A stretch of 64,000 bases of DNA from a bacterium (GTDB lineage: Bacteria > Patescibacteriota > Minisyncoccia > Phycocordibacterales > UBA9973). The first letter of the stretch is position 1, and each line of letters starts with the position of its first letter. The stretch is from positions 80,892 to 144,891 of the forward strand of contig JBAWZD010000001.1 of the NCBI GenBank assembly GCA_037143195.1, in the 5' to 3' direction. Both the position numbers and the translations under genes were made by a program. Below the pieces are notes generated by a model that saw only the letters and a program-made list of their open reading frames with translations, had not been told where the DNA came from and did no database searches. This document shows, piece by piece, positions 3,034 through 57,206 of the stretch.

Positions 3034-3073
3034 GAAAATGCGCGGTCGCCCGAAGGGCGACCGCGCATTTTTG
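3034..3073. terminator. intrinsic terminator downstream of gdhA (13-bp GC-rich stem, loop CGAAG, T-tract)
   Basis: Perfect inverted repeat atgcgcggtcgcc / ggcgaccgcgcat at 3038-3050 and 3056-3068, followed by ttttt and preceded by aaaa. Confidence 0.6.
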
Positions 3074-3127
3074 TACCCCGACAATATCCTTTCCCGATCT
3101 CAAACCAAGGCGTATACTATATCTACT

Positions 3128-3547
3128 ATGGAAAACCTACCAAAAGCATCCAAATGGCAGATTATCAATCGTCATTATTATGGCAATGTCGTCCGCGGTA
3201 TTTTCGTGATTGTGGGGCTTATGATGCTCGCCACATTCCCATTTTTTAGCGATCTCGTTCCTGTTCCACTTTGGCTCTCGATTGGCATCATTGCGATGCT
3301 CGCAGTGTTTGGCGGATTACTCAATCCCGCACAGCGCTGGCTTCTCGTTGTAAACACTATTTTACCTATCGTAGGTTTGATCGTGTTTCAGTATGAAGCA
3401 GCCTTTGCATATACACACATTCCTGTCACCGAAACACGTCGCGTCGCGTTTTTCTGGGCAAATGAAATCGTCTCACTTCTTTTCTTTGTTGCCACATACC
3501 TTGCAGTCAAAACTGCCCGTGGACGTTTTGTCGAGGAGGTAGAATAG
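3128..3547 (+). CDS. hypothetical integral membrane protein
   Basis: ORF with at least three hydrophobic helices. The ATG at 3128 (MENLPKASKWQ...) is the first start after the terminator hairpin; the six-frame track start at 3038 lies inside the hairpin. Confidence 0.45.
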   Translation: MENLPKASKWQIINRHYYGNVVRGIFVIVGLMMLATFPFFSDLVPVPLWLSIGIIAMLAVFGGLLNPAQRWLLVVNTILPIVGLIVFQYEAAFAYTHIPVTETRRVAFFWANEIVSLLFFVATYLAVKTARGRFVEEVE

Positions 3548-3573
3548 TCCGACGTATGGTATTCTGTTAAGGT

Positions 3574-5073
3574 ATGGCACGAGCCAATAAGATTCAGATA
3601 ATCAAATACGCTCCGCCACCACTCGAGCTTCCAGTCTATGGCAAGGTTGATCCGGCGGAGGTATCTTTTATTGGTCGCACCAACTACGTCGCGGCCCTTG
3701 AAGAAAAGAAATTCCTTTTCGGTATCAAACGAGCCGATCGTCGTCGTCATCTCTATATCATCGGAAAGTCAGGTGTTGGAAAATCTAAGCTCCAAGAGCT
3801 TTTTGTGCGTCAGGACATCGCATATGGTCACGGTGTCTGTGTGATTGATCCGCACGGAGAATTCATCGACGACATTCTTGTTTCGATTCCAGAAAACCGT
3901 GTTGAGGACGTCTGTATCATTGACCCATCAGATGTTGATTTTCCTGCGTCATTCAATCCGCTCCAAAACGTTGATCCAACTTTCAAACATCAACTCACAC
4001 AAGGATTGATTGAAGTGCTCGAAAAGCAATTCGGAGCAAACTGGACACCACGTCTTGAGCATGTCTTCCGCTTCACGACACTCGCGCTCCTCGACTATCC
4101 GCACGCAACAATGCGCGGAATGATTTCAATGCTCACCGACCGTAACTACCGTCAAAAAGTGGTTGAATATATCGAAGACGACATGGTCAAGCGCTTCTGG
4201 GCAATCGAATTCGCCGATTGGTCTGAGAAATTCGACACTGACGCTATCATCCCGCTCGTCAACAAACTCGGACAATTTTTGTCTGATCCGATGCTCCGCA
4301 ATATCTTCGGACAAAAAACAAACAAGATCAATTTGGAAGAAATGATGAACACGCAAAAGATTTTGCTCATCAACCTTTCAAAAGGAAAAATTGGTGAAGA
4401 AAACTCATCATTCTTTGGAGCAATGTTTTTGACCAAGATCAAACAAGCCGGAATGGCGCGTGCGAAGATTGACGCGAAAGATCGTAAAGACTTTTATCTC
4501 TACGTGGACGAGTTCCAAAACGTTGTGACGGATACGTTTGAAAACTTGCTTTCTGAGGCCCGTAAATATGCGATCAATCTCACGATGGCACATCAATACG
4601 TCGGACAAATCCCCGAGAAGGTTGAAGCTGCCGTACTCGGAAACGTCGGATCGATTATTTCATTCCGTGTGGGTGGTGACGATGCAGTGAAGCTCAAACC
4701 TGAGTTCGCGCCTATCTTCGATGTCAAAGACATGATCAACCTTGGAGTCGGGGAGTTCTATATCAAAATGACAATCGATGGTGAATCATACGACCCATTT
4801 TCTGCCGAGACACTCAAGGTCCTTCCGCCACCATATCCATCAAACAAAGAACGTATTATCGCATCATCACGACGCAAATTCGCGATTACGGCAGAAGATG
4901 CCAAGCGTTTGATTGCGGAAGAAGAATCCACTATCATTCGTAGCGCACAAGAAAAGGCTGCTATTATGCGAAAGGGTGTGAACGAGGGCGGAAGTGCGGG
5001 AGTGGGCGCGAGCGGAGCGAGCGCCCCACAAGCTCCTGCAAAAGTGGAAGAAATCGCCGAACCATTAATCTAA
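3574..5073 (+). CDS. soluble P-loop NTPase of the FtsK/HerA/TraG(VirD4) superfamily (ATPase-1 of the locus)
   Basis: Walker A IIGKSGVGKS, a DPHGE box (VCVIDPHGEF), Walker B FYLYVDEFQN, and an arginine-finger-like EARKYAINLTMAHQY. No N-terminal transmembrane segments. It is a paralog of 8570..10999. Confidence 0.7.
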   Translation: MARANKIQIIKYAPPPLELPVYGKVDPAEVSFIGRTNYVAALEEKKFLFGIKRADRRRHLYIIGKSGVGKSKLQELFVRQDIAYGHGVCVIDPHGEFIDDILVSIPENRVEDVCIIDPSDVDFPASFNPLQNVDPTFKHQLTQGLIEVLEKQFGANWTPRLEHVFRFTTLALLDYPHATMRGMISMLTDRNYRQKVVEYIEDDMVKRFWAIEFADWSEKFDTDAIIPLVNKLGQFLSDPMLRNIFGQKTNKINLEEMMNTQKILLINLSKGKIGEENSSFFGAMFLTKIKQAGMARAKIDAKDRKDFYLYVDEFQNVVTDTFENLLSEARKYAINLTMAHQYVGQIPEKVEAAVLGNVGSIISFRVGGDDAVKLKPEFAPIFDVKDMINLGVGEFYIKMTIDGESYDPFSAETLKVLPPPYPSNKERIIASSRRKFAITAEDAKRLIAEEESTIIRSAQEKAAIMRKGVNEGGSAGVGASGASAPQAPAKVEEIAEPLI

Positions 5074-5086
5074 CTAATTCAATCGA

Positions 5087-6742
5087 ATGGATACACAAGA
5101 GAAGACATGCGAGTATTGTGGTAATAATTTCAAGCTAAGTAGTGACGAACTCGTAATGTATGGGAAAGTTCAAGTCGAATTTCCAACTATTTGTATTACC
5201 TGTCGCTGGGCACAGCAATTCGCATTTTGGCCATTCGGTAAATTTCGAAAAGGAGTATCCGCTTTGTCGGGACAAAGTTTGATTACGATGCTCCCTGCGA
5301 GTGTTCGATATCCAATTTACACTGCCAAAGAATGGTGGAGCGACGCATGGGATCCAATGGAGTTTGGCCAAGACTATGATTCAACACGATCCTTTTTCGA
5401 TCAACTGAAAGAAGTACAGGAAAAAGTTCCGCGTCCACATCAGCAGGGGACGAATAGTACAGGATGTGATTGGTGTGACGATATTTGGGACTCCAAAAAT
5501 TGTTATCTCTCGCGTTCATGTGCGCGAGCCGAAAATGTCTCATATGGATATCGCGGTTTCGACGTAAAAGATTCTATCGATATTTCGCATGCATTTTCGC
5601 TCGATAATTGTTACGAATGTACATACTCGTTCAATTGCTTTGAGCTTTATTTTTCTCGCAATTGCCGCGATTGTATGAACAGTCGATTTTTGTACGATTG
5701 CCGCAATTGTAGTAATTGTACGATGTGTTGGAATCTTCGTGGCAAACAATATTGTATCGAGAATGTGCAGTACTCAAAAGAAGAGTACTTTGAAAAAGTG
5801 AAGGAATATGACATGAGCTCGTATCAGAATTTACAGCACCTCCAAAAGCGATATACTGATATCCTAAAAACTGAGACTATCCATCGCGAGAATTTTAATA
5901 TCAATACATATACTTCGACGGGCACGTATCTCGCGGACTGTAACAATTGTAAAAATGTATTTGGTTGGGAAGAATCTGAAAACTGTATCAACTGTTTGCG
6001 TGGTCGCGAAGCGAAAGATAGTATCGATTTGCTTGGCACATGGAAAGTAGAATTGTGCGGAAACGATAGTTGTTGCACGGGCGGATACGAACTCCGCTAT
6101 TCGTCATGGTCAGAGGGAAGATATTCTGAATATTTGGATGAATGTATTGAAGTGGAAAATTGTTTTGGGTGTGTTGGTCTTCGCAAGAAAAATTATTGTA
6201 TTCTCAATCGTCAATATACAAAAGAAGAGTACGAAGCGCTAAAGGAGAAAATCATTGCAGATATGCGCGCACGAGGAGAATATGGGCGCTTCTTGCCATA
6301 CTCGATGGGGCTTTGTTCGTACAATCTCACGACTGCTGCGATTTATATGCCCGAAATTTCAAAGGACTATGTACTTGCTCGTGGAGGGTATTGGGATGAT
6401 CAATCAGAAGATGCCGTAGAAGGACTCGCGACGAGCGAACTTCCAGACTCAATCAGAGAAGTCGATGCAACAATATCAAAACAACCGCTTGTGTGTCCGG
6501 TGACCGGATGGCGCTACAATATTTCTGCTGACGAGTTTCAGTTTTTGTCACGAAAAGGAATCGCACTTCCACGAGTCCATTTCGATGTTCGAACCAAGAA
6601 CCGTATGCGAGCGCTTGCGACTCTCCACGGAGAACACTACTCATGTGTTTTTTGTGCCAAAGATTGCATCGGATATTATCCAAAAGATTGGGGCTACACT
6701 CACATCGCATGTGAGGAATGTTACAAGCAAAATATCAATTAG
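5087..6742 (+). CDS. cysteine-rich protein with terminal zinc ribbons and a duplicated internal Cys-repeat module (unknown family)
   Basis: 551 aa with about 50 Cys. N-terminal CEYCG...CITCR and C-terminal CVFCAKDC...CEECY zinc ribbons. Motif WWSDAWDP. Internally repeated NCFGCVGLRKKNYCILNRQYTKEEYE-type units. Starts 14 nt after ATPase-1. Confidence 0.6.
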   Translation: MDTQEKTCEYCGNNFKLSSDELVMYGKVQVEFPTICITCRWAQQFAFWPFGKFRKGVSALSGQSLITMLPASVRYPIYTAKEWWSDAWDPMEFGQDYDSTRSFFDQLKEVQEKVPRPHQQGTNSTGCDWCDDIWDSKNCYLSRSCARAENVSYGYRGFDVKDSIDISHAFSLDNCYECTYSFNCFELYFSRNCRDCMNSRFLYDCRNCSNCTMCWNLRGKQYCIENVQYSKEEYFEKVKEYDMSSYQNLQHLQKRYTDILKTETIHRENFNINTYTSTGTYLADCNNCKNVFGWEESENCINCLRGREAKDSIDLLGTWKVELCGNDSCCTGGYELRYSSWSEGRYSEYLDECIEVENCFGCVGLRKKNYCILNRQYTKEEYEALKEKIIADMRARGEYGRFLPYSMGLCSYNLTTAAIYMPEISKDYVLARGGYWDDQSEDAVEGLATSELPDSIREVDATISKQPLVCPVTGWRYNISADEFQFLSRKGIALPRVHFDVRTKNRMRALATLHGEHYSCVFCAKDCIGYYPKDWGYTHIACEECYKQNIN

Positions 6743-6748
6743 TTCTGT

Positions 6749-8491
6749 ATGGAATCTCGCAATTGCCAAAACTGCAAAACTGATTTCGAGATTGAGCCAG
6801 AAGATTTTTTGTTCTACGAAAAAATCCAAGCCCCACCACCGACGTTTTGTCCCGAGTGTCGCACGGCACGACGTCTTTCGTGGCGCAACGAGATGTCGCT
6901 TTATAAGCGTACATGTGACGCTCCTTCACACGGAGAGCCACTCATTACGATCTATCATCCTGACACAAAATTGCACGTGGTTGATTCAAAATATTGGTGG
7001 AGTGACGCATGGGATCCATTTGATTACGGGGTAGAATACGATTTTTCGAAACCATTTTTTCAGCAATGGATTGAGCTCTATCGACGTATCCCCGTACAAG
7101 GACTTTCCAATTCAAATGCAACGAATAGCGATTATTGTAATATCGCAGAGGAGAGTCGTGATTCATACATGATATCAGCTACATGGAAAGTTGAGCGTAG
7201 TTTTTATTCCAACCGCATCATGGAAGTGAAGGATTCATCTGATTTGTATGTCGTGCATGATTCCGAACTCTGTTACGAAGATATCATTTCTTCTGATTGC
7301 TATCATGTTCTGTATTCTGCGAACTGCAAAAGCTGTGTCGATTCGTATTTCCTTTATGATTGTCATGGATGCACCAACTGTTTTGGATGTACCAATTTGC
7401 GAAACCAATCATACTGTATGTGGAATGAACAATTGGGTAAGGAGGAATACATGCGTAGGATGTCTGAACTCGATATGAGTAGTTATACAGTCGTTGCAGA
7501 CTGCAAGCAACGATTTTCTGAGATGTGCATGCAAGCGATTCATCGTTTCGCAAACCAAATTAAAATTGTAAATTCTACCGGCGACAATCTTGAGGGAGTG
7601 AAAAATACTCGGATGTGTTTTGATGCGAGCGGACAGATTGAAGACTCGAAATTCGTTCACTGGGCAAAGGTGAGTGCAAAGGATGTGTATGATTCTGGTC
7701 CTGGAGTTGGTATGGGTGAAATGATGTACGAGGTTTTTGATACCGGTATTGGGAATTTTCGAAACCTTTTTACGAGTGTTGTGTATAGTTCAAACGAGAT
7801 TGAGTATTCATTCAACTGTCACGGTTCTTCGAATTTGTTCGGCTGTATTGGTATTCGAGGAAAAAATTACTGTATTTTAAATCGACCGTATGAGAAAGAG
7901 GAGTACGAATCGCTTGTACCCAAAATCAAAGAGCATATGATGACGATGCCATATATCGACGCGAAGGGTAGAACGTATCGTTATGGAGAATTTTTCCCTT
8001 CCGAACTTTCACCGTTCGCATACAACGAGACGGTTGCGCAGGATTATTTTCCACTTTCAAAGATCGATGCGGTTGAGCGAGGACATTTGTGGCGAGACAA
8101 GACACTTCAAAATTATGCAGTCACACTATTTGCGAAAGATTTACCGGACTCGCTCTCAATGGTTTCGGATACAATTACAAAAGAAATCATTGGCTGTCTT
8201 CACAACGGAGAGTGTTCGGATCGATGCGCTCGAGCATATCGCATAACAGCTGACGAGCTTAATTTGTACCGCAGAATCGGTGTTCCGCTTCCACGGCTTT
8301 GTTTTGGCTGTCGTCACGACGAGCGTCTTCGAAAGCGTAATCCAATGAAGCTTTGGTCTCGTACCTGCATGTGCACCCAGTCAAACCACGACCACACAGG
8401 CCCATGTCAGGCGACATTCGAGACTGCATATGCACCAGAGCGAAAGGAGATTGTGTACTGTGAATCGTGTTACCAAAAAGAGGTCTTGTAA
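6749..8491 (+). CDS. cysteine-rich protein, paralog of 5087..6742
   Basis: 580 aa with the same architecture. N-terminal ribbon CQNCK...CPECR, motif WWSDAWDP, units CFGCIGIRGKNYCILNRPYEKEEYE, C-terminal ribbon CFGCRHD...CESCYQ. Starts 7 nt after the preceding gene. Confidence 0.6.
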   Translation: MESRNCQNCKTDFEIEPEDFLFYEKIQAPPPTFCPECRTARRLSWRNEMSLYKRTCDAPSHGEPLITIYHPDTKLHVVDSKYWWSDAWDPFDYGVEYDFSKPFFQQWIELYRRIPVQGLSNSNATNSDYCNIAEESRDSYMISATWKVERSFYSNRIMEVKDSSDLYVVHDSELCYEDIISSDCYHVLYSANCKSCVDSYFLYDCHGCTNCFGCTNLRNQSYCMWNEQLGKEEYMRRMSELDMSSYTVVADCKQRFSEMCMQAIHRFANQIKIVNSTGDNLEGVKNTRMCFDASGQIEDSKFVHWAKVSAKDVYDSGPGVGMGEMMYEVFDTGIGNFRNLFTSVVYSSNEIEYSFNCHGSSNLFGCIGIRGKNYCILNRPYEKEEYESLVPKIKEHMMTMPYIDAKGRTYRYGEFFPSELSPFAYNETVAQDYFPLSKIDAVERGHLWRDKTLQNYAVTLFAKDLPDSLSMVSDTITKEIIGCLHNGECSDRCARAYRITADELNLYRRIGVPLPRLCFGCRHDERLRKRNPMKLWSRTCMCTQSNHDHTGPCQATFETAYAPERKEIVYCESCYQKEVL

Positions 8492-8569
8492 AATCGAGCG
8501 TAAAACAGCCAACATATAAAAGTTTTGAACTGTGGCGTAAAAGTTTTAAAGCTTGTATAATTTCAGTAT

Positions 8570-10999
8570 ATGGATTTCCTCCCCGATGGGGTTGCTTTTA
8601 ATAAAAATATTACCTATCTCGCGAAAACAAATTTTCGCGCTCATGAGCAGGTATTCGGTATCAAGCGTAAGGATCGACGCCAGCATATGTACGTGCTTGG
8701 AAAGTCCGGTTCGGGTAAATCCGTGCTTCTTGGAAACATGATCGTCCAGAATATCTGGAACGGTGAAGGTGTGTGTGTCATCGACCCGCACGGCGAGCTT
8801 GTGGAAAGTGTACTTGCGACTATTCCTGCACACCGCGCGAAAGATGTCATCTATTTCAACCCAGCCGATACTGACTACCACATTGGATTCAATGTGCTTC
8901 AAGTGGACGATCCAAAGTACAAACACCTTGTGGCATCCGGACTTATGGGAATCTTTACCAAGATTTGGGCCAATGCGTGGAGTGCCCGTATGGAATACAT
9001 TTTGAACAATGCGATTCTTGCACTTGCCGATACACCTGGGTCAACACTGCTTGGTATTCCACGTCTCCTCGTGGATAAAGACTACCGTCAGGTGGTCATC
9101 AACAACTTGAAAGATCCAGTGATCAAAGCGTTCTGGATTCATGAATACGAAAACTGGCGTGATCAATATCGTAACGAAGCGATCGCTCCAATTCAAAACA
9201 AAGTCGGACAATTTCTTTCGACCTCTATTGTTCGTAACGTCGTTGGTCAAGCGAAGTCTACGATCGATTTGTTTGAAATGATGAACACGGGAAAAATATT
9301 CCTCGTCAACGTTTCAAAAGGACGTATCGGTGAAGACAACTCTGCACTGCTCGGAGGTATGATCATTACCAAGCTTCAGCTCGCGGCGATGGAACGCGTG
9401 CGTATTCCTGAAGACGAGCGTAAGGATTTCTATCTCTACGTGGACGAATTTCAAAACTTCGTGACCGATGCATTCGCGTCGATTCTTTCTGAGGCACGTA
9501 AATATCGTCTCAACCTCACACTCGCGCACCAATACATTGCTCAGCTGGTGACCAAAGATTCAGAGGCCGTGCGTGATGCCGTATTCGGAAACGTTGGAAC
9601 GATGATTGTGTTTCGTGTTGGTGCGGCAGACGCTGAATTCTTGGAGCAAGAATTTGAACCAGAGTTTATGATTCAAGACATGGTGAATTTGCCGAACTAC
9701 ACAATCTATCTCAAGCTCATGGTGGACGGTGTTACGTCTCGTCCATTTTCTGCAAAGACACTTCCTCCATACAAAATTCCAGAGAACAGTAACGTTGCAC
9801 AAGAAATCATCGAATCATCACGACGATTGTATGCGCGTCCACGCGAAACCGTTGAAAAAGAAATTAATGAATGGAGTGGAATGCTCGTTGGACTTGCCGA
9901 AGAAGGGAAGTTTAAGGCGGTATGTTCGTCGTGTGGCAAAGAAACGATGGTGCCATTTGAACCTGAGGCAGGACGTCCAGTGTATTGTAAGGAATGTATC
10001 GCCAAGATCAAATCGGGTGAAATGAAACCGCTCAAGGGAACGAAACAGGAAAGTCTTCGTCCTCAATCGTATGCTGCCCTTTCGAGTCTCGGAATCGAAT
10101 TCGTTTCTGACGGATCGCCAATGCCGAAGCCGAGTGCTCCGCGGGGCATGCCACCACCAATGGCGCGTCCTCCAATCGGAAAGCCATTCGTGCCAACACG
10201 CATGCCACTTCCAGTGACGAAACCTGTCATGAATGGAGCGAAAGCTTCCTCGCCCGTTGTACCAAAAGCACCAATCAAGGGCGGAGAAAAACCTTCGCTT
10301 GGCGCTATTGCTCGGGCGAATAATGCGCAGGCGGCTCGTGCGACACAAGCTCCTGAAAGTACACAATCTGATCGACCAAAGAATTTCCGAACGCCAAACG
10401 TCGAGCGCAAAGGTCCTGATCATGAAGGATTGCAGTCAATCTTGAAACAAGCACTCGGCAGTGCGATGAAAGAAGAAACACCGGTTGTTCCTCAAACAAC
10501 AAACACCGAGACAGTAAAAAATGGGCCAGACATGGTTGTTGAGAAAAAAGAGGAGCGACCAACGATATCGTTGTCAGCACTCAAGAAGCCTGATTCTGTC
10601 GTGAATGCTGCTCCAAAACTCCAGACCAAAACAGCTTCTGATGAACGTGTCTCGGCATTGCAGAATGCAATCGCACGAGCAGCAAAAATTGAAATCAAAC
10701 CGGAACCAAAAGTCGAACCTACGCCAATCGTTGAGGAAAAGAGCGAAGCTTCTCTCGCTCCAGTTGCTCCGCGGGTAGAGACTACTTTTGTTCCGCGCCC
10801 CGCACCGCCCGTGGTAGAGACTCCAACACCGAAAATAGATGTCACTCCTATACCTCAAGCCCCAAGTACTCCGCCACCACCTGCTGAAAAACAAACACCT
10901 GATGAGGACAAACAACCTGAAGAAAAACCGGCTGACGCAACTGGCAAAAAAGTTCGCGAAATTCCGGAAGATATCTTGAGGAAGGTTCTCAATGAATAA
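8570..10999 (+). CDS. P-loop NTPase paralog (ATPase-2) with a C-terminal zinc ribbon and a long Pro/Ala/Lys-rich disordered tail
   Basis: Walker A VLGKSGSGKS, VCVIDPHGEL, Walker B FYLYVDEFQN and EARKYRLNLTLAHQY are collinear with ATPase-1 over about 440 aa. This is followed by CSSCGK...YCKECIAKIK and roughly 330 aa of low-complexity sequence. Confidence 0.7.
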   Translation: MDFLPDGVAFNKNITYLAKTNFRAHEQVFGIKRKDRRQHMYVLGKSGSGKSVLLGNMIVQNIWNGEGVCVIDPHGELVESVLATIPAHRAKDVIYFNPADTDYHIGFNVLQVDDPKYKHLVASGLMGIFTKIWANAWSARMEYILNNAILALADTPGSTLLGIPRLLVDKDYRQVVINNLKDPVIKAFWIHEYENWRDQYRNEAIAPIQNKVGQFLSTSIVRNVVGQAKSTIDLFEMMNTGKIFLVNVSKGRIGEDNSALLGGMIITKLQLAAMERVRIPEDERKDFYLYVDEFQNFVTDAFASILSEARKYRLNLTLAHQYIAQLVTKDSEAVRDAVFGNVGTMIVFRVGAADAEFLEQEFEPEFMIQDMVNLPNYTIYLKLMVDGVTSRPFSAKTLPPYKIPENSNVAQEIIESSRRLYARPRETVEKEINEWSGMLVGLAEEGKFKAVCSSCGKETMVPFEPEAGRPVYCKECIAKIKSGEMKPLKGTKQESLRPQSYAALSSLGIEFVSDGSPMPKPSAPRGMPPPMARPPIGKPFVPTRMPLPVTKPVMNGAKASSPVVPKAPIKGGEKPSLGAIARANNAQAARATQAPESTQSDRPKNFRTPNVERKGPDHEGLQSILKQALGSAMKEETPVVPQTTNTETVKNGPDMVVEKKEERPTISLSALKKPDSVVNAAPKLQTKTASDERVSALQNAIARAAKIEIKPEPKVEPTPIVEEKSEASLAPVAPRVETTFVPRPAPPVVETPTPKIDVTPIPQAPSTPPPPAEKQTPDEDKQPEEKPADATGKKVREIPEDILRKVLNE

Positions 11000-11027
11000 T
11001 TAGTAATTAGTTTTTTTGTGTTTTCTC

Positions 11028-12563
11028 ATGCGCCATATTTCTATGTGTGTTCTTTTTGGTGTGATGTTTGTGAGTGTGCTATGTTTGGGCGTGAAGTACG
11101 TACAGGCCTCGAATGGTTTAGAAATATCAGAAATAATGTACGACCCGAGTGGTACTGATACGAATCGCGAGTGGATTGAAGTACACAATACAAGTTCTGA
11201 GAGTATTGATCTCGCGGGATATTTTTTGTTGACGGATGGTTTGTCGAGCTCGCATCATGCGCTCGCGCCTGTCGGCGCGAGCGCAATCCCACATGACGGA
11301 TATGCCGTCATCGTTCAGGATGTGAATGCATTCAAAACAGATTATCCAAATTACTCAGGATTGCTGTTTGATTCTAGTTGGACAGGACTTACTGCAAGTA
11401 GTGGTAAAACAATCGCCCTCATTGATACCGCGGGAGTGGTGCTTGATCAAGTCACATATGACCCATCGATCGGTGCGACAAACGATGGCAATTCGTTACA
11501 AAAAAATTCCACCGGCGCATGGGTGAGTGCACCGCCGACACCGAATAGTGCTCTCCAAAATACTGATACGAATTCTCATGCTACGACAGATACAGGAACG
11601 AACGAGCAAACAACAAATCAAAGCGCGAGTAGTGTTTCGGTGCTTGCTCCCGTGAGTTCCGAAAAAAATGTTGAATCAAAAGCGACCGTACCACATATCG
11701 ATTTTTCGATTCCAAAAATCGCAACCACCGGTATTCCGGTTCCAATCGTGTATACCGTTTATGGTGCACAAGGAGATATCCGCTATTACGGGAGTGTTCA
11801 TATTGCGTTTGGAGATGGTTCGGAATATGGTGGTTCGTCAAAGGATGAGACCTCACACATCTATCAATCCGCGGGAACATATATTGTGAAGCTCGACTAT
11901 CGCTCAAATTCGTATATACAAAAACCTGACATGTCTGTGCGAGCGACCGTCGTCGTGTCGAGCCCGAGCGTTGTAGTGTCGCAGGTTACCTCAGATGATT
12001 CAATCGTGCTCGCGAATACGAGCACGAGCGAGGCAGATATTTCGGGGTGGATTCTGACTGCAACCCTCGGTGAAAAGAAAAACGAATTTCACATTCCCGA
12101 TGGTACGATTATTGCACCCAAGGCGATAGTAACAGTACCCGCAAGTGTCGTCGGATTTTTGGGTGACGTTCCGACGATTACACTCTCGTTACCACTGCAT
12201 ATACCGGTTAGTACCTATACAATGAGTATCGAAAACGAAACGGATCAACCCATTGTTGCAGCAACACCAAATCAAAGAGCGACTATCTCAACAATCGATC
12301 AATCAGAAAAATCACCTGAAACAAATGTCGAAATGAATAGTGCGCTCGCGCTCCAACCAACAGAAACAAAAACAGGGAAGTCATTCTTTTGGTATGCGAT
12401 GTTTCTGCTTGTCGTGATTGCGTGTTCTGTTTATTCGTTTCTACGTTTTGTCGGAATAAAAAAACAAGATGGAGATATCCCAATCGTTCGTGAAGCATTC
12501 GCGCAAGAAGTAGAAGGCGAGCATCCGAGTGGTATTGATGATGTGCGGATTGTCGAAGAATAG
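11028..12563 (+). CDS. membrane-anchored extracellular protein with two lamin-tail domains (LTD)
   Basis: Signal-peptide-like N-terminus. LTD signature LEISEIMYDPSGTDTNREWIEVHN...DLAGYFLLTDG, and a second LTD-like segment SIVLANTSTSEADISGWILT. C-terminal TM anchor FFWYAMFLLVVIACSVYSFL. The ATG at 11028 is preferred over the TTG at 11016. Confidence 0.6.
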   Translation: MRHISMCVLFGVMFVSVLCLGVKYVQASNGLEISEIMYDPSGTDTNREWIEVHNTSSESIDLAGYFLLTDGLSSSHHALAPVGASAIPHDGYAVIVQDVNAFKTDYPNYSGLLFDSSWTGLTASSGKTIALIDTAGVVLDQVTYDPSIGATNDGNSLQKNSTGAWVSAPPTPNSALQNTDTNSHATTDTGTNEQTTNQSASSVSVLAPVSSEKNVESKATVPHIDFSIPKIATTGIPVPIVYTVYGAQGDIRYYGSVHIAFGDGSEYGGSSKDETSHIYQSAGTYIVKLDYRSNSYIQKPDMSVRATVVVSSPSVVVSQVTSDDSIVLANTSTSEADISGWILTATLGEKKNEFHIPDGTIIAPKAIVTVPASVVGFLGDVPTITLSLPLHIPVSTYTMSIENETDQPIVAATPNQRATISTIDQSEKSPETNVEMNSALALQPTETKTGKSFFWYAMFLLVVIACSVYSFLRFVGIKKQDGDIPIVREAFAQEVEGEHPSGIDDVRIVEE

Positions 12564-12568
12564 AAATA

Positions 12569-12596
12569 AAAATACCCCGAGTGTCGGGGTATTTTT
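12569..12596. terminator. intrinsic terminator closing the 3574-12563 gene block
   Basis: aaaataccccga gtg tcggggtattttt: a 10-bp stem with a 3-nt loop and a T-tract. Confidence 0.55.
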
Positions 12597-12840
12597 ATGA
12601 GAGGCGATTACTTGTTTTCATTTTTTTCGTGAGACTTCTCGTCGTGGCCTTCACTTTGGCAATGACATGCCTCGAGTGGTTGACCGTGTTTTGCACAGGA
12701 TTCGGCCTGACACGTTCCTGGCGTAAGGGAGATACCTTTGCATCCGCCCGTACAGATGTAGTGTTCTTTCATCGCAACGCTTACTTAGCCCGCAGTGTGC
12801 GGGTATTTAATAATACGCACACCTACAGTATAATCGAAAT

Positions 12841-15488: not shown

Positions 15489-15563
15489 TATCGCTCCACA
15501 ATAGATATGCTTCTGACAATGCGTAAAACCTGTTACTATAGGTATGGGTCTCGCAAAAATCAT

Positions 15564-18500
15564 ATGAACACAAGAATACACACACTCTCGCTCGGGCTCC
15601 TTTTTTTGGGCGCACTCTTTTTCCCGTACGCACACGCAGATGCGTTTGCAACCATAAATACCGGTGCAGGATCGACGCCTAACTACTCATCCGTCGCAGA
15701 AAAAAAACTCTACGCAGGAAGCGGGAGTGATGACGTCGTTGTTATCAACGGTGCGGATGATTCCGTGTCTCATATTCCTGTCGGTGGCCCGACAGGTTTT
15801 TCTGTTCCTGTGGGCAACAAAGTCTACATGGAGACCAACGATGGGATTGTGGTCATTAACGCAACGACCGATACAGTCATCACCACGATTCCGGTTCTTG
15901 GATTGAATGGACGAGGTGGAACCTACGGCACTGTCGTGGGAACGCACTTGTACTGGGGTAACATTTCAAACTCGACTGTGTCTGTGATCGATACGACGAC
16001 TGATACCGTCGTCGGAAGTCCGATTTCTGTCGGAGGCGTTCCATTTTCTGCGAGTGTCGTTGGCACTACGATATACCTCAACTGCCAAACTGCGAATACT
16101 GTATATGTCATCGACGCTGATCCACGCTCGACTAACTACAATACTGTCATCGCGACGATTCCGGTAGGAGGAAGTCCATACTACTCGACTGCATTCGGCA
16201 AAAAAGTGTATGTGAGTAACAATAGTGACGCCACGATGTCTGTCATTGACGCAGATCCCGAGTCTGCATCGTACAATCATGTCATCGGAAGTCCGATTCC
16301 AATTGGAAGTGCTCCGTACACTGCGCGATCGATAGGACATAAGATATATGTCAGCGTGTATGGTGACAACGCGGAATCTGTCATTGATACAACAGATACG
16401 ACACCAGAGTTTCCGGGTGGACGATTCATGAAAAAAATTCCTGTCGGTGTCGCACCTGACTACGCACGATTTGTCGGAACGCGATTGTACGTCGCAAACC
16501 AAGGTGATCATAGTGTGTCGGTGATTGATACGGATACAGATACTGTTGTTGGTACAATCAGCGGAACAGGAATTCGATATCCAAGTGTTATCGGAACAAA
16601 AGTGTATGTTCCTGCGCTTGGATACGATTCTGTCACTGTTATCGATACAACCACTGACGTGACAGGGGATTTTCCCCAGCTTGTATCGTTTAGCACAAGC
16701 TCGCCCGATGGAACGTACTCGGCATCGGACACGATTCCTATCACGGCAAACTTTGGTCGTCCACTTCATTCGGGATCAACAATGACTGTTCGACTGAATA
16801 CCGGGGCTTCAGTTGTTTTGAATTCAGTTTCGGGTACGCAATTGTCGGGTACGTATACGGTCGGTGTGAATGATCAAACTCCTGATTTGGCAGTCTCGTC
16901 GATTCTGAGTGCTTCGGTTACTGATACGACAAATCACACACGCATGAATTATGCGATGCCGTATTCTGCAGGCAATTTTTCAGCCGAGAATTCTTTGATT
17001 GAGCGTAATATTGGTGATAGCAAAAATATTGTCATCGGAACATTTTTTTCTATTCCTGTTGGGAATAATCCTTATCAAATTTCTCCAGTCGTGACAGTCG
17101 GTGGTACAAAGTATGTCTATGTTGCCAATCAGGGCGATGGTACGGTGTCAGTCATTCGTTTGTCGGATTCGACAGTTGTTAGCACAATCACTGTTGGTTC
17201 TGAGCCGTATGGAATTGCCTCGGCCACTGTTTCGGGGGTTGTGTATTTATATGTCGCGAACACTGGTTCAAAATCAGTTTCTGTTATCGACACAAGCACC
17301 AACACCGTAGCTGCAACTGTCACTGTTGGATTAAATCCGTACTATGCGACGACTGTCGGAACAAACGTGTATGTCACAAATGGATTATCGAATACCGTCT
17401 CTGTGATTGATGCGAATACAAATACACTTGAGTCGACCGTCGAAGTAGGCTCGTATCCTCGTGGCATCAAAGCCCACGGTACGAATGTGTACGTCGCAAA
17501 CTACGGTGACATCAACAACAATTATGGTGGCAATAACACGATTTCTGTCATCGATGCAAACCCTGCATCTCCGACGTTCAACCAAGTCACGGCAACGATT
17601 GTTTCTCCAGGAGGAAGTGCCGGGCCTCGCGGAGTGACAATGCATACCGATGCAACGCTTGGAGACAAAGTCTATGTTTCTAACTTTCGTTCAGACACAG
17701 TTTCTGTTATCGACGTTAATCCGGCGCATGGGAACACTTACAACAAAATCGTACAAACTATCGCGGTTGGTAAAGGTCCGCGCGGCATGACTATCTTCGG
17801 TGATTATGTTTATGTAGAAAATTTTGACGACGGTACGATATCGATTATTGATACAACTGCATCGGGTGGTCTTGGTGCACTTATCGGATCGATTGATCCT
17901 GCAGGGCATTCACCGTCTGGTATTACCCCTGTGACGGGTGCTGGCGTTGCGATTCCAGGGATCTATTTTTCTCGCTTTCAGGACGGCGTTGTTTCGATTA
18001 TTGATACTGCAACCAATCAAGTCTATCCGCCACATCCAGCGACAACCTATACAATCACTGGACCGAGTACTGGAGTTTTGAATACGGTGTCAGACGTGTT
18101 TTCCGTACGTATGAACGGTACATTTTCTGGTGCCGTCACCATCACTCCGTCGGGCGGGGGAATCACAAATCCAATCGTACTCCATTTCTCAAATTCTCCG
18201 ACGCAATTTTTTACCATTACTCCGAGCGCAGTTGGAACGATATCACTCACTGCTTCAAACGATGGTGGATTACCTGATCCATCATCGCTCACATACCTCG
18301 CATACAATACGATGCCGTTTGTCTCGACCGGTAGTGCGACGGTACTTTCAGACACGTCAGTCCAAATGAGTGGCACGGTGACTGACATTGGTACGAGTAC
18401 TGTCACCACTACAGGATTCCATTATGGTACTGATGCATCGCTTGTGACGTATAGCGATAGTCGTACGATTGATTTGTCTATAACATCTACGCCGACAGGT

Positions 18501-21500
18501 TTCCAACGAAAAAATTCCGGTCTCATTTGTAACACACGATATTACTACCAAGCGTATGCAACGAACACGAGTGGAACGAGCTATGGAACAATACAAAGTT
18601 TTACCACCGACACCTGTGGTAGTGCTTCGCCAACAGTCGCGTGGTACGACACAGCGTGGAGTTATCGCACCAAGCTCACGATCGACCGCACAAAAGTCGC
18701 GAACAGTGATCAAACAAATTTCCCCGTACTTATTCGAAGCACGAATTCTGCATGGAAGAGCGCTGCACACAATGGACATGTCGCGTTTGATACGGGGAAC
18801 GATATCGTTTTTGTTGCTGACGACGGAGTAACAAAACTCAATCACGAAATTGAAAAATACGACCCGACTACAGGGGAATTGATCGCATGGGTGCGTGTTC
18901 CGACGGTCTCATATACTGCAGATACAGACGTATATATGTATTACGGCAATGCTTCTGCGAGTGATCAGTCGAATCCGACTGGAGTGTGGACCAATCACTT
19001 TGGTGCGGTGTACCATTTGTCTGATAGTGGACCTTCGATAGCTTCCGATACGACAGGCAATCACGATGCAACGACGAGCGGGGCTATCACATTTGGACAA
19101 ACAGGCACGATTCATAAAGCCGTGACATTCGATGGCACGATTGGTGGAGATATGGACACGGGATACGTTGTTCCGTCATCGGATATTTCTATCAGCGCGT
19201 GGGCACAGTCATCATCGACGGGAATCACCAATCGCTTGCTTGGCGCGAACGGAACAAACATCATTTGGGGCGCACGAAACGTATCAACAAGTCTCATTGC
19301 TTCAATCAACAGTGCGAGCGGGGGTGGTGGCAGCATTAACATCGACGTACCAAGTCTTGCGAGTGGTTGGCACTATATCGAATTAACAATTGATTCTACG
19401 AACGGAACACAGTTGTATGATGACGGCGTGCTTGTCGGAAGTTCGATATCAAAAAATATTGTTTCGACGAATTCTTTCCATATTGGAAACGATGGAGACG
19501 GAGTACCAACCGACGTGTTTGACGGATCGGTTGATGAAGTCCATTTTGCAACAGTCGCACGATCTGCTGATTGGGTTATGACCGAATATGCCAACCAACA
19601 ATCTACGGCATCATTTTACTCGCAGAGCAGAGAAGAAAACCAAGCATTTTCTATCAATGGTGGCGCGACCACAACTGCATCACCTGCGGTTACGCTCTCA
19701 CTTACGTGTGCGGGGACTCCAGGACCATGCACGATGATGCAGTTTTCTGACGATGGCGTGACGTATTCTTCGTTCGAATCATTTTCGACGACGAAGCTGT
19801 ACACACTTTCAGCAGGCGATGGAACAAAAACAGTCTACGTGAAATTCAAAGACGGTAGTAGCAATCTGAGTACTCCAATCTCGTCGAGTATTTTGCTCGA
19901 TTCAACTCCGCCAACTGGATCAATCAGTATCAATAGTGGAGCACAATCGACGCGTGTGACAAGTGTCACGTTGACACTCTCATGTAGTGACGTCGCAACC
20001 TCCTGCGCTCAAATGCAGTTTTCAAACGACGATACGACATACACATCACTTGAATCATTTTCGACGACGAAGAGTTACACACTGTCATCGGGGCTCGGAA
20101 TCAAAACGGTATATGTGCGATTCACTGATGCGCTTGGCAATGTGAGCCCATCATTTTCTGCAAGTATTGATTACGAGACTGCGGCTCCTGCTGTGGCAAC
20201 GACGTCGCCACTTGTTTTTGTAACCAAAACTTCCGCCGTGCTTTTGGGATCGGTGACGGATATTGGCACGAGCGCTGTTGTCACGACCGGTTTCCATTTT
20301 GGTACTGATCCTGCGCTTGCAACGTCAATCGATGTTCATACCGATGGACAATCAATCAATGCTTCACCGTCGAGCTTTTCTGAAACTCTTTCTGGTCTCA
20401 CGTGTGCGACAACGTATTACTATCGTTCGTACGCAACAAACAGCGACGGTACGGGCAATGGCTCGATTCAAAATTTTGCCACATCTCCGTGCACGAGCAC
20501 TGGTGTGGTTGCAACATGTGGTGATCTTGCCGATATGAGTACCGATCTTTCTGGATCGTATTCGCTTTCACGAGACCTTGATTGTAGTGGCATTAGCTTC
20601 ACTTCGATTGGTACCGCAGTCAATCCGTTTCTTGGTACGTTTGATGGACGCGGACATACGATTACCGGACTCTCAATCACGGGCGTCAGTAATGTAGGAT
20701 TATTTGGATTTGTCCAAGACGCGACAATCAGCAATCTCGGATTGGTGTCAGTCTCGATAACTGGCAAAAACCAAGTTGGTGCACTCGTTGGATCTGCGAC
20801 TGGTACGACGCGTATTACACATTCGTACGCGACGGGAAGCATCACTGGATCTGCAAACGGCGTATCTGTGGGTGGACTTGTTGGATACACCAATGGAACA
20901 GTTTCAATTTCAAAATCATATTCGACTGCTACAATCACAACCGGCTCCGGTTACAGTTCTGCTGGAGGATTGGTAGGACAGGCAGATGGGGCACTTACAA
21001 TCAATGATTCGTATGCACGAGGCAATATAACGAGCAGTAGCGCTGGAGGTTTGGTGGGAAATACCACAGGTACAGTTACCGTTACGAATGCATACGCGAC
21101 AGGCAACATAAACAATCGTACACGCGGAACATTCGCTGGAGGTTTGGTGGCGAGTAGTACAGGTGCGATCACAATTACCAACGCATTTAGTGCAGGGAGT
21201 TTGACTGGCTCGGGTACATTCGGAGGAATCATCGGAAGATACAACGGAAGCACTGGTATCACGAATGCATACTTCACTGATGCGAGCGCAAATAACGCCA
21301 AAGGTGTTCTCGTCGGATCAGTCGGACTACTCAAATCAATCGACCATGCAGTTTATGCACAAGGTGGAGGTAGTCCATGGAATTTTACGACAACATGGGC
21401 ATTTGATGGAGGAATAAATAATGGTTTTCCATTCTTACTTCCTGTTGCCGTGCCAAGTGTGACTGCTGGTAGTGTCTCCGCTATCACGACGAGTACTGCA

Positions 21501-53552: not shown

Positions 53553-54578
53553 ATGAGTGACCAAGCCCTATATCGCAAATATCGCCCTGAAGTGTTCGCC
53601 GATCTTGTCGGTCAGGAACACATTGTCGCTTCGCTTGAAGGCGCACTTTCGTCGGGCAAAATCGCGCATGCATATCTCTTTTCGGGCGGTCGCGGTACGG
53701 GCAAGACCACGAGTGCTCGCATTCTCGCGAGTGCGCTCGGTACGAGTACAAGTGACACGTATGAGATAGATGCGGCATCCAACAATGGTGTAGATGACAT
53801 TCGCGAATTGCGCGAGAACGTCGGCACGCTTCCGTTTGATTCGCGATTCAAGGTTTACATCATCGACGAGGTGCATATGCTTTCAAAAGCTGCGTTTAAT
53901 GCACTGCTCAAGACGCTCGAAGAACCACCAGCGCATGTCATTTTTATTCTCGCGACGACCGAACTCGAAAAAGTTCCTGACACTATCATCTCGCGTTGTC
54001 AGACATTTGTATTTCGCAAACCATCTGAATCGACACTTCGCACTGTGATCGAAAAGACTGCCAAGAAAGAAAAAGTCACCCTCGGCGCAGGCGTGGCAGA
54101 TTTGATCGCGCTCCTTGCGAATGGTTCGTTCCGCGATGCGCTTGGCACACTCCAAAAAGTTTGCACGAGCGGGGGAGACAAGGTTTCTCTCGAGCAAGCA
54201 GCCCGCATCACCGGCGCACCATCCGGCACGATCGTCCACGATATCATGGACGCAATCGCGCGCGGAGCACTCAGTGAGGCCCTCACGACTGTTGAGCGCG
54301 CGCGTGCATCCAACATCGAACCCAAAATATTGCTCGGTCTCTTGCTCCACACATTCCGCCGAGTGCTCTTGCTCAAAGTCGCTCCATCGCTCGCCAAAGG
54401 TGAGATTGATGGTTTGAGTGATGAAGAAAAAGTTTTTTTGATAAAGCTGTCAAAGTCGGATTCAGTGCACCTCAATTCAAACGCGCTCCTCGCGCTCCTC
54501 GACGCAATGAGCACCCAAAAGTACGCCTACATCGAAGAATTGCCCCTCGAGCTCGCGCTCATGAAGATGCTTGGGTAG
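53553..54578 (+). CDS. dnaX: DNA polymerase III subunit gamma/tau (short form)
   Basis: LYRKYRPEVFADLVGQEH, P-loop GGRGTGKTT, DExx IIDEVHML, and sensor SRCQTF. 341 aa. Confidence 0.75.
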   Translation: MSDQALYRKYRPEVFADLVGQEHIVASLEGALSSGKIAHAYLFSGGRGTGKTTSARILASALGTSTSDTYEIDAASNNGVDDIRELRENVGTLPFDSRFKVYIIDEVHMLSKAAFNALLKTLEEPPAHVIFILATTELEKVPDTIISRCQTFVFRKPSESTLRTVIEKTAKKEKVTLGAGVADLIALLANGSFRDALGTLQKVCTSGGDKVSLEQAARITGAPSGTIVHDIMDAIARGALSEALTTVERARASNIEPKILLGLLLHTFRRVLLLKVAPSLAKGEIDGLSDEEKVFLIKLSKSDSVHLNSNALLALLDAMSTQKYAYIEELPLELALMKMLG

Positions 54579-54678
54579 GACAGTGTTTCCGAAGGGGAGC
54601 CGACACGGATTCTAGTGAGAATCGCTCGAGAGGTTGTTTTTTGGTCGTAAAAAAGATAAGCTAAAGTGTTTTTACCAT

Positions 54679-54749
54679 TGAGGGATCGTCTAACGGTAGG
54701 ACAGAGGCCTTTGAAGCCTTTAATCGGGGTTCGATTCCCTGTCCCTCAG
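54679..54749 (+). tRNA. tRNA-Gln (anticodon TTG) with a U1:A72 pair
   Basis: Acceptor TGAGGGA/TCCCTCA, anticodon loop CTTTGAA, TPsiC arm CGGGGTTCGATTCCCTG. Confidence 0.8.
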
Positions 54750-54806
54750 CAAACAAGAACGCCGTTTGATTACTTAAGAAATAGTTATTAATTAATATTA
54801 CATATT

Positions 54807-55544: not shown

Positions 55545-55600
55545 CTTTCAAAAAGCACGAACACTCCAGAGTGCCATAATAAAACCAAGGCAAGCCGTAT

Positions 55601-56107: not shown

Positions 56108-56110
56108 TAT

Positions 56111-57160: not shown

Positions 57161-57206
57161 CTCTTGTGTCGCTTTATTTTTTCTTTTTTGTTAGTATGTT
57201 CTGACT

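Follow-up and report, generated by a model that had tools for sequence, protein, structure and literature searches.

A block of paired ATPases and Cys-rich zinc-finger proteins in a Patescibacteria genome looks like the local layout of a conserved module for moving macromolecules

The gene block described here looks like the local layout of a conserved, Patescibacteria-wide module of housekeeping grade, a piece of core machinery for moving macromolecules. The reading that we favour, with a probability of roughly 0.4, is a membrane-associated coupling-type translocase handling protein cargo, in which the Cys-rich C proteins would serve as adaptors or as the cargo itself. Much of bacterial diversity belongs to Patescibacteria, whose genomes are tiny and most of which live on other cells. 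In this module, an ATPase paired with an uncharacterised membrane protein (N) stands beside a family thousands strong, whose tandem genes can number more than 10 in a genome of ~1 Mb; neither the C family nor N has a model in Pfam, NCBIfam or PADLOC, and the annotation of the ATPases stops at generic domain names. Identifying the module's substrate would close a gap in our picture of core cell biology in this phylum and explain the approximately two "orphan" coupling-protein homologs found per CPR genome.

The window, that is, the whole stretch of 64,000 nucleotides analysed, carries on its + strand all five of the co-directional ORFs that a sequence-only reading had picked out, namely A1, C1, C2, A2 and LTD. 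The features are as follows.

3034..3072, + strand: 5' hairpin with T-run, 3' of the glutamate dehydrogenase gene (gdh); -33.7 kcal/mol, z -7.8, equalled by 0 of 200 shuffles (RNA fold)
3128..3547, + strand: small membrane-protein ORF, 139 aa, ~4 hydrophobic helices, 26 nt 5' of A1
3574..5073, + strand: A1, soluble P-loop ATPase of the VirD4/TraD/HerA clade, 499 aa, ATPase core alone
5087..6742, + strand: C1, cytoplasmic zinc-finger/beta-solenoid protein, 551 aa, 36 Cys, most conserved C subfamily
6749..8491, + strand: C2, paralog of C1, 580 aa, 31 Cys
8570..10999, + strand: A2, paralog of A1, 809 aa
8570..9904, + strand: A2 ATPase core, aa 1-445, paralogous to A1
9911..10006, + strand: A2 treble-clef zinc finger zf_Tbcl_2, CxxC-x17-CxxC, aa 448-479; PF23477 E 3.8e-15, TIGR04272 E 1.9e-16
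10007..10999, + strand: A2 C-terminal tail, ~325 aa, Pro/Ala/Lys-rich, pI 9.5 (composition)
11016/11043-12563, + strand: LTD protein with two lamin-tail domains and a PKD-like middle, 515/506 aa; the public assembly calls the start at 11043
12566..12598, no strand assigned: 3' palindromic hairpin with a 15-bp stem that closes the unit; -20 kcal/mol, z -5.3

The intergenic gap of 78 nt between C2 and A2 agrees with the earlier figure, and the other gaps, previously given as 14, 7 and 28 nt, are 13 nt (A1-C1), 6 nt (C1-C2) and 16-43 nt (A2-LTD). The strong terminator read at the end of the block is borne out by the 3' hairpin, and at the 5' end the hairpin behind gdh probably bounds the transcription unit, whose first gene is likely to be the 139-aa ORF, one gene before A1. 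What had been called a five-gene block thus does hold those five genes, but the hairpin-bounded unit (~3073-12565) includes a sixth, small membrane-protein gene. This ORF has no Pfam or PHROG family and its membership in the module is uncertain; it is kept in the closest relative only (L009, 95% identity), was not found in the other loci examined, and was rejected on this account as a general partner of the module. Purifying selection on the genes of the block is strong, the codon differences from the 95%-identical relative being 195 synonymous and 25 non-synonymous in C1, and 124 synonymous and 3 non-synonymous in the A2 core.

Judged by their sequences, A1 and A2 belong to the VirD4/VirB4/HerA clade of P-loop ATPases; their paralogy and common motifs, already noticed before, are upheld by 45% identity over 440 aa (E 6e-137) and by the shared GKSG(V/S)GKS, VIDPHGE, FYLYVDEFQN and SEARKY. 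A1 matches DUF87, T4SS-DNA_transf, TrwB_AAD_bind and TraG-D_C in Pfam, the TraD and VirD4-like CD1115 families in NCBIfam with scores far under their cut-offs, and phrog_5156 (E 2e-51). The best NCBIfam score of the ATPases is 56 bits, against a cut-off of 366 for SXT_TraD, with CD1115 at 43.5 against 250; a match to CedD is weak. The TrwB_AAD_bind profile aligns over positions 11-313 of 387 (E 1e-12), and the model has a helical insert at residues 115-240, a candidate for the all-alpha domain that coupling proteins carry within the NBD, although the VirB4 C-terminal domain fits equally well; TrwB, DotL, HerA and FtsK are among the structural neighbours. Neither protein has a TM segment or any hydrophobic stretch before Walker A, which starts at residue ~64 in A1 and ~44 in A2, in keeping with their earlier description as soluble members of the HerA/FtsK/VirD4 superfamily. 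The finger and tail of A2 are basic, and the tail, disordered as inferred from its composition, retains short conserved motifs, including its last ~15 residues, as islands in a 64-sequence alignment.

The ATPases evolve very slowly. Orthologs of A1 in other genera are 76-87% identical, and the median identity of the A2 core across Paceibacteria is 89.5%, compared with 84.3% for DnaK and 73.8% for GrpE from the same loci, and the suggestion of a system "rather than housekeeping" is not supported: the module is core. VirD4-like homologs in CPR bacteria have been counted at 5,713 in 2,918 of 3,035 genomes (~96%), only 148 of them lying near virB4, and the T4CP homolog is not essential in the sole genetically tested CPR species (preprint 10.1101/2025.01.22.634366). 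A mobile or phage origin was rejected, since IMG/VR holds hardly any trace of the C family (two marginal matches) and the ATPase shares only 22-27% identity with its relatives in phages.

The Cys-rich proteins form a Patescibacteria-wide, unannotated family of ~4,900 clusters at 50% identity, with tandem arrays of up to 11 copies. C1 has 4,013 homologs, every one of them named "hypothetical", and C2 has 6,183, its orthologs being 60-91% identical. The proteins contain fewer cysteines than the ~50 initially ascribed to each (the family median is 36), but they are indeed paralogous (33% identity over 529 aa, E 2e-89) and their Cys modules are duplicated, with an hhalign probability of 99.6% (E 5e-25) for module 1 against module 2. 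Each has a treble-clef zinc finger at either end and two beta-solenoid modules (AF2 model of C1, pLDDT 87.8), and the N-terminal finger aligns with a C-terminal segment (hhalign probability 97.9%). Their placement outside known families stands as well: C1 and C2 match nothing in Pfam, NCBIfam or PADLOC, DnaJ_CXXCXGXG repeats have no Pfam match in C1, C2 or 77 diverse C members, no solved structural relative was found, and the literature searched on the C family, zf_Tbcl and a CPR FtsK or Hsp70 link yielded nothing relevant. The same 77 members include 29 with zf_Tbcl_2 (PF23477) and 23 with zf_Tbcl (PF13451), at a best E of 9e-10; C1 and C2 fall under the threshold for these models, and both align to members that match. 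A2 and the termini of C proteins have finger families in common, and hhalign gives a probability of 85% for the A2 finger against the C-terminal ribbon of C. Zinc binding of a zf_Tbcl-type domain has been shown by ICP-MS in small proteins of Methanosarcina (PMC12704099). The invariant positions of the C family are Q, P, N, N, P and R, and no invariant residue is of a catalytic type, as might be expected of a protein that binds or acts as a scaffold. The C arrays are mostly solitary, or accompanied by divergent TrmB-like regulators, ArsR-type HTH genes and CutA1.

The co-occurrence of ATPase and Cys-rich genes in related genomes, proposed as something worth seeking, was found. The order A1-C1-C2-A2 of the window recurs in L009, and other arrangements are A1-C-CutA-C-A2 (L022, L023), DnaK-A2-C-HTH-C-C-C-A1-DnaJ (L008), C-C-A-CutA-C (L032, L073), N-C-A1-A2 (L113) and, in Peribacteria, C-C-C followed by a fused N-A gene (L065, L078). 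Among 63 long species-representative loci, 22 have an A gene at most 10 kb from a C gene, ~8 times the chance estimate of ~4% for two genes in a ~1-Mb genome, and in the distant clade a C gene is near A in just 1 of 48 A loci. Because, in addition, 41 of the 63 C loci have no A gene within 10 kb, the A-C link is lineage-restricted. In Paceibacteria the usual home of the module is inside grpE-dnaK-dnaJ: grpE directly precedes the C1 ortholog in 11 of 18 loci, and the order DnaK-A2-(C)-A1-DnaJ is seen in L008, L093, L094, L096, L097 and L099. This Hsp70 linkage is absent outside Paceibacteria, and the usual contexts of the module, besides grpE-dnaK-dnaJ, are ribosomal-protein operons and secA-secDF, not islands.

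In distant lineages, a membrane-anchored protein of ~450 aa, N, with hydrophobic, Trp-rich helices at its N-terminus, lies directly 5' of the A2-type gene in 36 of 37 loci, at a median gap of ~40 nt. The N-A pair is often 3' of secA-secD-secF, with SecDF located 5' in 14 of 23 distant-clade loci, and a 342-aa DNA-binding protein (sigma70_r4 + HARE-HTH) is encoded 5' of N in 18 of 23. In Peribacteria and Gracilibacteria a single fused gene encodes N and the ATPase, and the N- and C-terminal parts of phrog_5156 correspond to N and to the ATPase, respectively; the N domain has no Pfam, NCBIfam or PDB-profile match, and no description of N or of the C family was found in the literature searched. 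The absence of a membrane anchor from A1 and A2, pointed out previously, is real, and a separate N gene 5' of the ATPase in most other lineages offers a different explanation: the near-invariant position of N implies that the "missing anchor" would be supplied in trans. Given this pairing, often downstream of secA-secD-secF, the ATPase most likely acts at the membrane, as a two-piece translocase resembling coupling proteins.

A1 and A2 share with type IV coupling proteins (VirD4/TrwB/TraD/PcfC) the NBD of the FtsK/HerA superfamily, including its Walker A and Walker B motifs. Unlike those proteins, they lack a TM domain at the N-terminus, since the anchor, together with a ~380-aa domain, is encoded by a separate gene or is fused without TM; they show no linkage to virB or relaxase genes, lie on the chromosome, occur in nearly all CPR, are duplicated, bear the zf_Tbcl_2 finger and a long tail, and score far under every NCBIfam family cut-off. 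The DotL-DotM-DotN-IcmSW-LvgA complex of Legionella may offer an analogy, but the C proteins have no sequence relation to DotN or IcmSW, and there is no Dot/Icm apparatus here. Sequence profiles of A1 and A2 favour TraD/VirD4 over VirB4, of which CPR genomes carry a separate bona fide copy, and N resembles neither a known family nor any solved structure. HerA of HerA-NurA and of Sir2/DUF4297 defence differs in its HAS-barrel, which A1 and A2 lack, having only ~45 residues before Walker A, modelled as just short strands; moreover, their neighbours C1, C2, LTD and the small TM protein have no nuclease or Sir2 match, and the genes are not island-borne. The EccC/EssC ATPases of type VII systems (FtsK/SpoIIIE family) are much more distant, with multiple ATPase domains in tandem and TM segments of their own, and no WXG100-like genes occur here.

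In the favoured reading, the engine would be a ring-type pair of A1 and A2, an ATPase that was duplicated in Paceibacteria, where the copies usually lie between dnaK and dnaJ, interleaved with C genes. Tethered at the membrane, it would use ATP to hand off or translocate a polypeptide cargo there, with Hsp70 in a helper role, while the C proteins, as zinc-finger adaptors or cargo, would bind by way of the finger that they share with A2, or of the A2 tail. Against this stand the lineage-restricted A-C link, the non-essential T4CP homolog, the phage homolog described below, the window itself, in which no homologs of N, dnaK, grpE, dnaJ or sec genes were found, the possibility that the arrangement near secDF reflects inherited synteny, and the fact that the closest characterised relatives of the ATPase family mostly move DNA. 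An HrcA/CIRCE operator was likewise looked for in the window and not found. A live alternative, though less well supported, is that N with A1/A2 is a chromosomal, exapted conjugative-coupling or FtsK-like motor that moves DNA or nucleoprotein at the membrane, in uptake, CPR type IV export or segregation, the fingers of A2 and C binding nucleic acid. The best sequence matches (TraD, VirD4-like CD1115 and TrwB, and CedD weakly), the structural neighbours, the basic finger and tail of A2 and the DNA-binding protein upstream of N agree with such a motor, as does the fused ATPase homolog gp27.4 of SPO1-like phages, which adjoins an actin-like protein and a "plasmid replication-relaxation protein". 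However, no T4SS, relaxase or nuclease gene is present among the ~35 larger window ORFs scanned, few CPR homologs lie near virB4, the HARE-HTH protein resembles an RNA-polymerase delta/sigma-type factor, and the strongest signals from the neighbourhood, dnaK/dnaJ/grpE and secA/secDF, point to protein handling. LIM domains are protein-binding modules, and they are the closest, weak match (E 0.017) of the double finger in the PDB. A Patescibacteria-specific export route, in which an N-tethered split coupling-type ATPase would send leaderless C proteins to the surface or into the host while Hsp70 keeps the cargo export-competent, seems rather unlikely; by analogy, it may be likened to type VII EccC with its PE/PPE cargo families, and the C family does grow to at least 10 tandem, separately regulated paralogs per genome.

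It is unlikely, somewhat less so than such an export route, that there is no single machine at all and that the ATPases and the C family function independently, the C genes being frequent neighbours in compact, syntenic genomes with, e.g., zinc-buffering, regulatory or structural roles. The many C arrays that are solitary or accompanied by regulators and CutA1, the distant N-A loci, most of which are devoid of C, and the minority of C loci with an A gene are what this would predict, but A-C adjacency exceeds chance, outlasts several rearrangements and spans classes, the gaps in the window are tight (13, 6 and 78 nt) and the zf_Tbcl_2 finger is common to A2 and C. Purely cytoplasmic proteostasis, with A1/A2 as an unfoldase or disaggregase working with DnaK/DnaJ/GrpE, C proteins as zinc-dependent holdases or adaptors and no membrane translocation, would suit the embedding in grpE-dnaK-dnaJ, the soluble A1 and A2 and the absence of N nearby in the window; it is improbable given that the ancestral partner N is membrane-anchored and the Hsp70 linkage is confined to Paceibacteria, and no member of this ATPase clade is known as a disaggregase. 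The anti-phage role raised in the sequence-only reading, a HerA-like ATPase with effector partners, was rejected as highly improbable on PADLOC results, conservation and context: the ATPases have only weak HerA/mad8 matches, C and LTD have none, the ATPases, found almost universally, surpass DnaK in conservation and lie in a housekeeping setting, nuclease, Sir2 and other effector domains are all absent, the N-terminus is too short to hold a HAS-barrel, and viral contigs are almost free of the C family. The only defence-like spot in the window is a restriction-modification pair 45 kb away, and the dprA and radC genes once cited as a competence context do exist, but they are unremarkable and lie over 27 kb from the block.

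The LTD protein was correctly recognised as having two lamin-tail domains and anchored ends. PF00932 matches it in two stretches (E 3.4e-24, 85.8 bits against a cut-off of 34.3), and its sequence, read directly, shows a signal-like segment at the N-terminus and a TM helix at the C-terminus. In the favoured translocase, this surface protein might be a lineage-specific outer partner or client. An LTD gene follows an A2-type gene on its 3' side in 8 other loci (L009, L022, L023, L072, L092, L107, L143 and L113).

The block consists of five co-directional open reading frames (ORFs), all found where the sequence-only reading had placed them: two paralogous ATPases of the VirD4/HerA clade, A1 and A2 (499 and 809 aa), two cysteine-rich proteins, C1 and C2 (551 and 580 aa), and a lamin-tail-domain (LTD) surface protein (515 or 506 aa). 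These genes and the neighboring signals are, in window coordinates:

3034-3072, hairpin closing the upstream glutamate dehydrogenase gene (-33.7 kcal/mol, z -7.8)
3128-3547, ORF of 139 aa with four transmembrane (TM) segments, 26 nt 5' of A1
3574-5073, + strand, A1 ORF
5087-6742, + strand, C1 ORF
6749-8491, + strand, C2 ORF
8556-8561, TATAAT hexamer, 8 nt 5' of the A2 start codon
8570-10999, + strand, A2 ORF
11016/11043-12563, + strand, LTD ORF, with two alternative starts
12566-12598, hairpin ending the block (-20 kcal/mol, z -5.3)

A strong hairpin does lie where a terminator had been proposed at the end of the block. The five-gene extent needs revision: since an even stronger hairpin lies upstream, with the 139-aa ORF shortly before A1, the transcription unit probably comprises six genes. 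The gaps measure 13, 6, 78 and 16-43 nt (14, 7, 78 and 28 nt in the sequence-only reading). This sole long gap, between C2 and A2, shows no significant RNA structure (z 0.05), and its TATAAT hexamer may, judging from sequence, be an internal promoter producing a near-leaderless A2 mRNA. Codon comparison with a 95%-identical relative revealed strong purifying selection on all block genes (195 synonymous and 25 non-synonymous differences in C1, 124 and 3 in the A2 core), and therefore the cysteine-rich ORFs, for which lack of translation had been considered, are real genes.

The paralogy claimed for A1 and A2 is evident (440 aa aligned at 45% identity, E 6e-137), and both contain the Walker A, DPHGE, YLYVDEFQN and EARKY motifs attributed to them. 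They belong to the FtsK/HerA superfamily and are nearest to conjugative coupling proteins, as indicated by matches to DUF87, T4SS-DNA_transf, TrwB_AAD_bind and TraG-D_C in Pfam and to TraD and VirD4-like CD1115 in NCBIfam; an assignment to HerA itself was rejected, there being no HAS-barrel and no nuclease partner. A2 additionally carries a treble-clef CxxC-x17-CxxC finger (zf_Tbcl_2, E 4e-15) and a basic tail of ~325 aa, rich in Pro, Ala and Lys, in which short motifs are conserved; public databases name it a 'CxxC-x17-CxxC domain-containing protein' or 'type IV secretion system DNA-binding domain-containing protein', and the AlphaFold model of its core, of moderate confidence (pLDDT 73.9), has TrwB, DotL, HerA and FtsK among its nearest structures. 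Sequence, predicted structure and gene order suggest that A1 and A2 work like type IV coupling proteins, from which they nevertheless differ: both lack a built-in TM domain, no T4SS or relaxase gene is linked to them, and every score falls far short of the curated cut-offs. These ATPases have already been counted among the orphan T4CP homologs of CPR (Patescibacteria): 5,713 VirD4-like homologs occur in 2,918 of 3,035 CPR genomes, only 148 of them near virB4, and the authors note that exaptation 'cannot be ruled out' (2025 preprint, 10.1101/2025.01.22.634366). Compared within one set of Paceibacteria loci, the A2 core has a median pairwise identity of 89.5%, DnaK of 84.3%, GrpE of 73.8% and C1 of 60.4%.

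The absence of membrane anchors from A1 and A2 was correctly noticed, neither protein having a predicted TM segment; elsewhere, the anchor would be encoded by a separate gene. This gene, N, recurs near A genes and encodes a protein of ~450 aa with hydrophobic, Trp-rich N-terminal helices, which has no match among Pfam, NCBIfam or PDB profiles; none was found in the window. Peribacteria and Gracilibacteria encode N domain and ATPase as one fused protein (741-833 aa), and the phage family phrog_5156 matches N at positions 79-287 and both A1 and A2 at 394-806, so the 'missing anchor' would be a split-gene feature of the ATPase family. SPO1-like phages encode a 906-aa fused homolog, gp27.4 (Bacillus phage vB_BsuM-Goe10, 4705-7425), flanked by small membrane proteins and the actin-like gp27.9 on one side and the 'plasmid replication-relaxation protein' gp27.3 on the other.

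The ATPase profile was also run against metagenomes, and the 80 best-scoring loci (no taxonomy attached, counts ignoring kinship) fall into two clades, separated at 63% identity to A2. In the <63% clade, N is the gene immediately 5' of the finger-bearing ATPase in 36 of the 37 loci whose sequence extends far enough upstream (median gap ~40 nt), with SecD/SecF farther upstream in 14/23 loci and a sigma70_r4 + HARE-HTH protein upstream in 18/23, and a C gene accompanies only 1/48. The Paceibacteria-like clade (>=63%) has a C gene in 12/32 loci, Hsp70-system genes in 7/32 and N in 5/22. The recurrent order is secA, secD, secF, HARE-HTH, N, finger-bearing A, pgk, DHH, RNase H, murJ. It is kept across many metagenome contigs (among loci L121-L169, e.g., L165:6287-11455), where the HARE-HTH protein has 342 aa and DHH is a phosphoesterase. 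N with the finger-bearing ATPase forms the widely conserved core, whose Paceibacteria-centred elaboration consists of A1 and the association with C.

C1 and C2 are paralogs as proposed (33% identity, E 2e-89), with 36 and 31 cysteines instead of the ~50 each reported. That they fall outside known families is supported by the absence of matches in Pfam, NCBIfam, PADLOC or PDB sequences. Their homologs number thousands, every one named 'hypothetical' and, where a source is named, always from Patescibacteria; searching 1.84 billion cluster representatives with the family profile returned 4,878 clusters at 50% identity, 2,146 of them with E <= 1e-30, and the best 150 are all full length (520-600 aa). 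The duplication noted within these proteins corresponds to two beta-solenoid modules (hhalign probability 99.6%), each closing with an '...ILNxQYxKEEY' helix, and related finger units flank the chain at both termini (97.9%). Of 77 diverse members, 29 match zf_Tbcl_2 and 23 match zf_Tbcl, and the A2 finger aligns with the C-terminal ribbon of the family with a probability of 85%; zinc binding by this finger type is known from small Methanosarcina proteins (PMC12704099). Profile matches start at residue 1-8 in nearly all proteins, where the first finger begins, and the C proteins thus have no signal peptide. The invariant residues (Q, P, N, N, P, R) do not look catalytic, and C is read as a putative cytoplasmic, zinc-stabilised binding or scaffold protein.

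Scanning one genome per GTDB species gave at least 584 confirmed C matches, from Nomura-, Lipton-, Jorgensen-, Harrison- and Staskawicz-bacteria, Peri/Peregrinibacteria, Gracilibacteria and Altimarinota. Neighbourhoods were mapped for the best 80 loci, with counts ignoring kinship; the survey counted 282 C genes over 84 loci, with as many as 11 tandem copies in 21 kb. Directly 5' of C1 orthologs is grpE in 11/18 loci, and C1 orthologs directly follow A1 in 4/18. Paceibacteria loci typically run from a ribosomal operon through grpE, C1 and C(n) to a PaaX_M-like regulator read from the other strand, and on through dnaK, one small gene, A2, C(n) and A1 to dnaJ; this order is repeated on six metagenome contigs, one of which (L096) reads DnaK-A2-A1-DnaJ with no genes between. 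The regulator, a ~170-aa wHTH + PaaX_M (Cas2-like) protein encoded between the C array and dnaK, is divergent from dnaK in 14 loci and may be the Hsp70-locus regulator in these lineages. The window lacks grpE, dnaK and dnaJ, and a search of it for a CIRCE element gave none. CutA1 lies inside A-C blocks in seven loci and ArsR-type HTH genes occur in four other C arrays, together hinting at a link to metals; the CutA1 (divalent-ion tolerance) gene was seen in such blocks also at L100, L108 and L119. Divergent TrmB-like regulators interrupt Peribacteria C arrays in 11 loci, which suggests that sub-arrays are separately regulated; such arrays of up to 11 paralogs belong to Peribacteria/Peregrinibacteria (L041, L047, L056, L063-L065, L079).

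Two independent protein-handling neighbourhoods in different lineages, dnaK/dnaJ/grpE and secA/secDF, argue for ATP-driven hand-off or translocation of polypeptides, in which the C proteins would be adaptors or the cargo, and on sequence, modelling and gene order we give this favoured reading a probability of roughly 40%. The data point to a near-universal ring ATPase that evolves slowly, belongs with the coupling proteins and is probably held at the membrane via N; one large class has duplicated it and placed it in the Hsp70 operon beside zinc-finger proteins with the same finger. The main rival is translocation of DNA or nucleoprotein, to which the relatives of the ATPase family, the basic finger and tail of A2, and the phage proteins adjoining gp27.4 all point; set against the protein-handling neighbourhoods, we regard it as possible and less probable than polypeptide transfer. 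That C and A are neighbours only is also possible, at somewhat lower probability; an A gene lies within 10 kb of C in 22 of 63 long loci, where ~4% is estimated for chance. A purely cytoplasmic machine is improbable, and a defence system very unlikely. In the literature searched there was no account of the C family, of N, of the ATPase-Hsp70 operon link or of the sec-N-A synteny, and with neither family present in the libraries searched (Pfam and NCBIfam for both, PADLOC for C), we class C and N as two new protein families attached to a putative coupling-type machine.

The last protein of the block has, as described, two lamin-tail domains and a potential anchor at both ends (signal-like at the N-terminus, a TM helix at the C-terminus), between which there is also a PKD-like segment. 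An LTD/PKD surface protein follows an A2-type gene (ATPase plus zf_Tbcl_2 finger) in eight other loci, in one of which the ATPase is only 58% identical to A2; the adjacency is more than incidental and far from universal.

Ordinary housekeeping functions (LeuRS, MurJ, LepA, Ddl, Alr, RelA/SpoT, TopA, SerRS, ParB, DprA, RadC) account for the other window ORFs scanned; among these genes are the dprA and radC earlier associated with competence. The exception is a restriction-modification pair:

57207-57974, + strand, LlaMI-type restriction endonuclease
57958-59061, - strand, C5 cytosine methylase

The pair sits in a low-GC stretch (54000-58000 region, GC 0.34-0.39), the sole island-like or defence-like spot among the ORFs scanned, in which ORFs 54807-55544 and 56111-57160 gave no family match. 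A 796-aa ORF at 35677-38067 (+), with two D-Ala-D-Ala ligase units and followed by alanine racemase, looks like a tandem Ddl fusion, and 15507-22130 (+) encodes a predicted surface protein of 2,207 aa with DUF2341, Glug and PG_binding_1 matches and many beta-propeller-like repeats.
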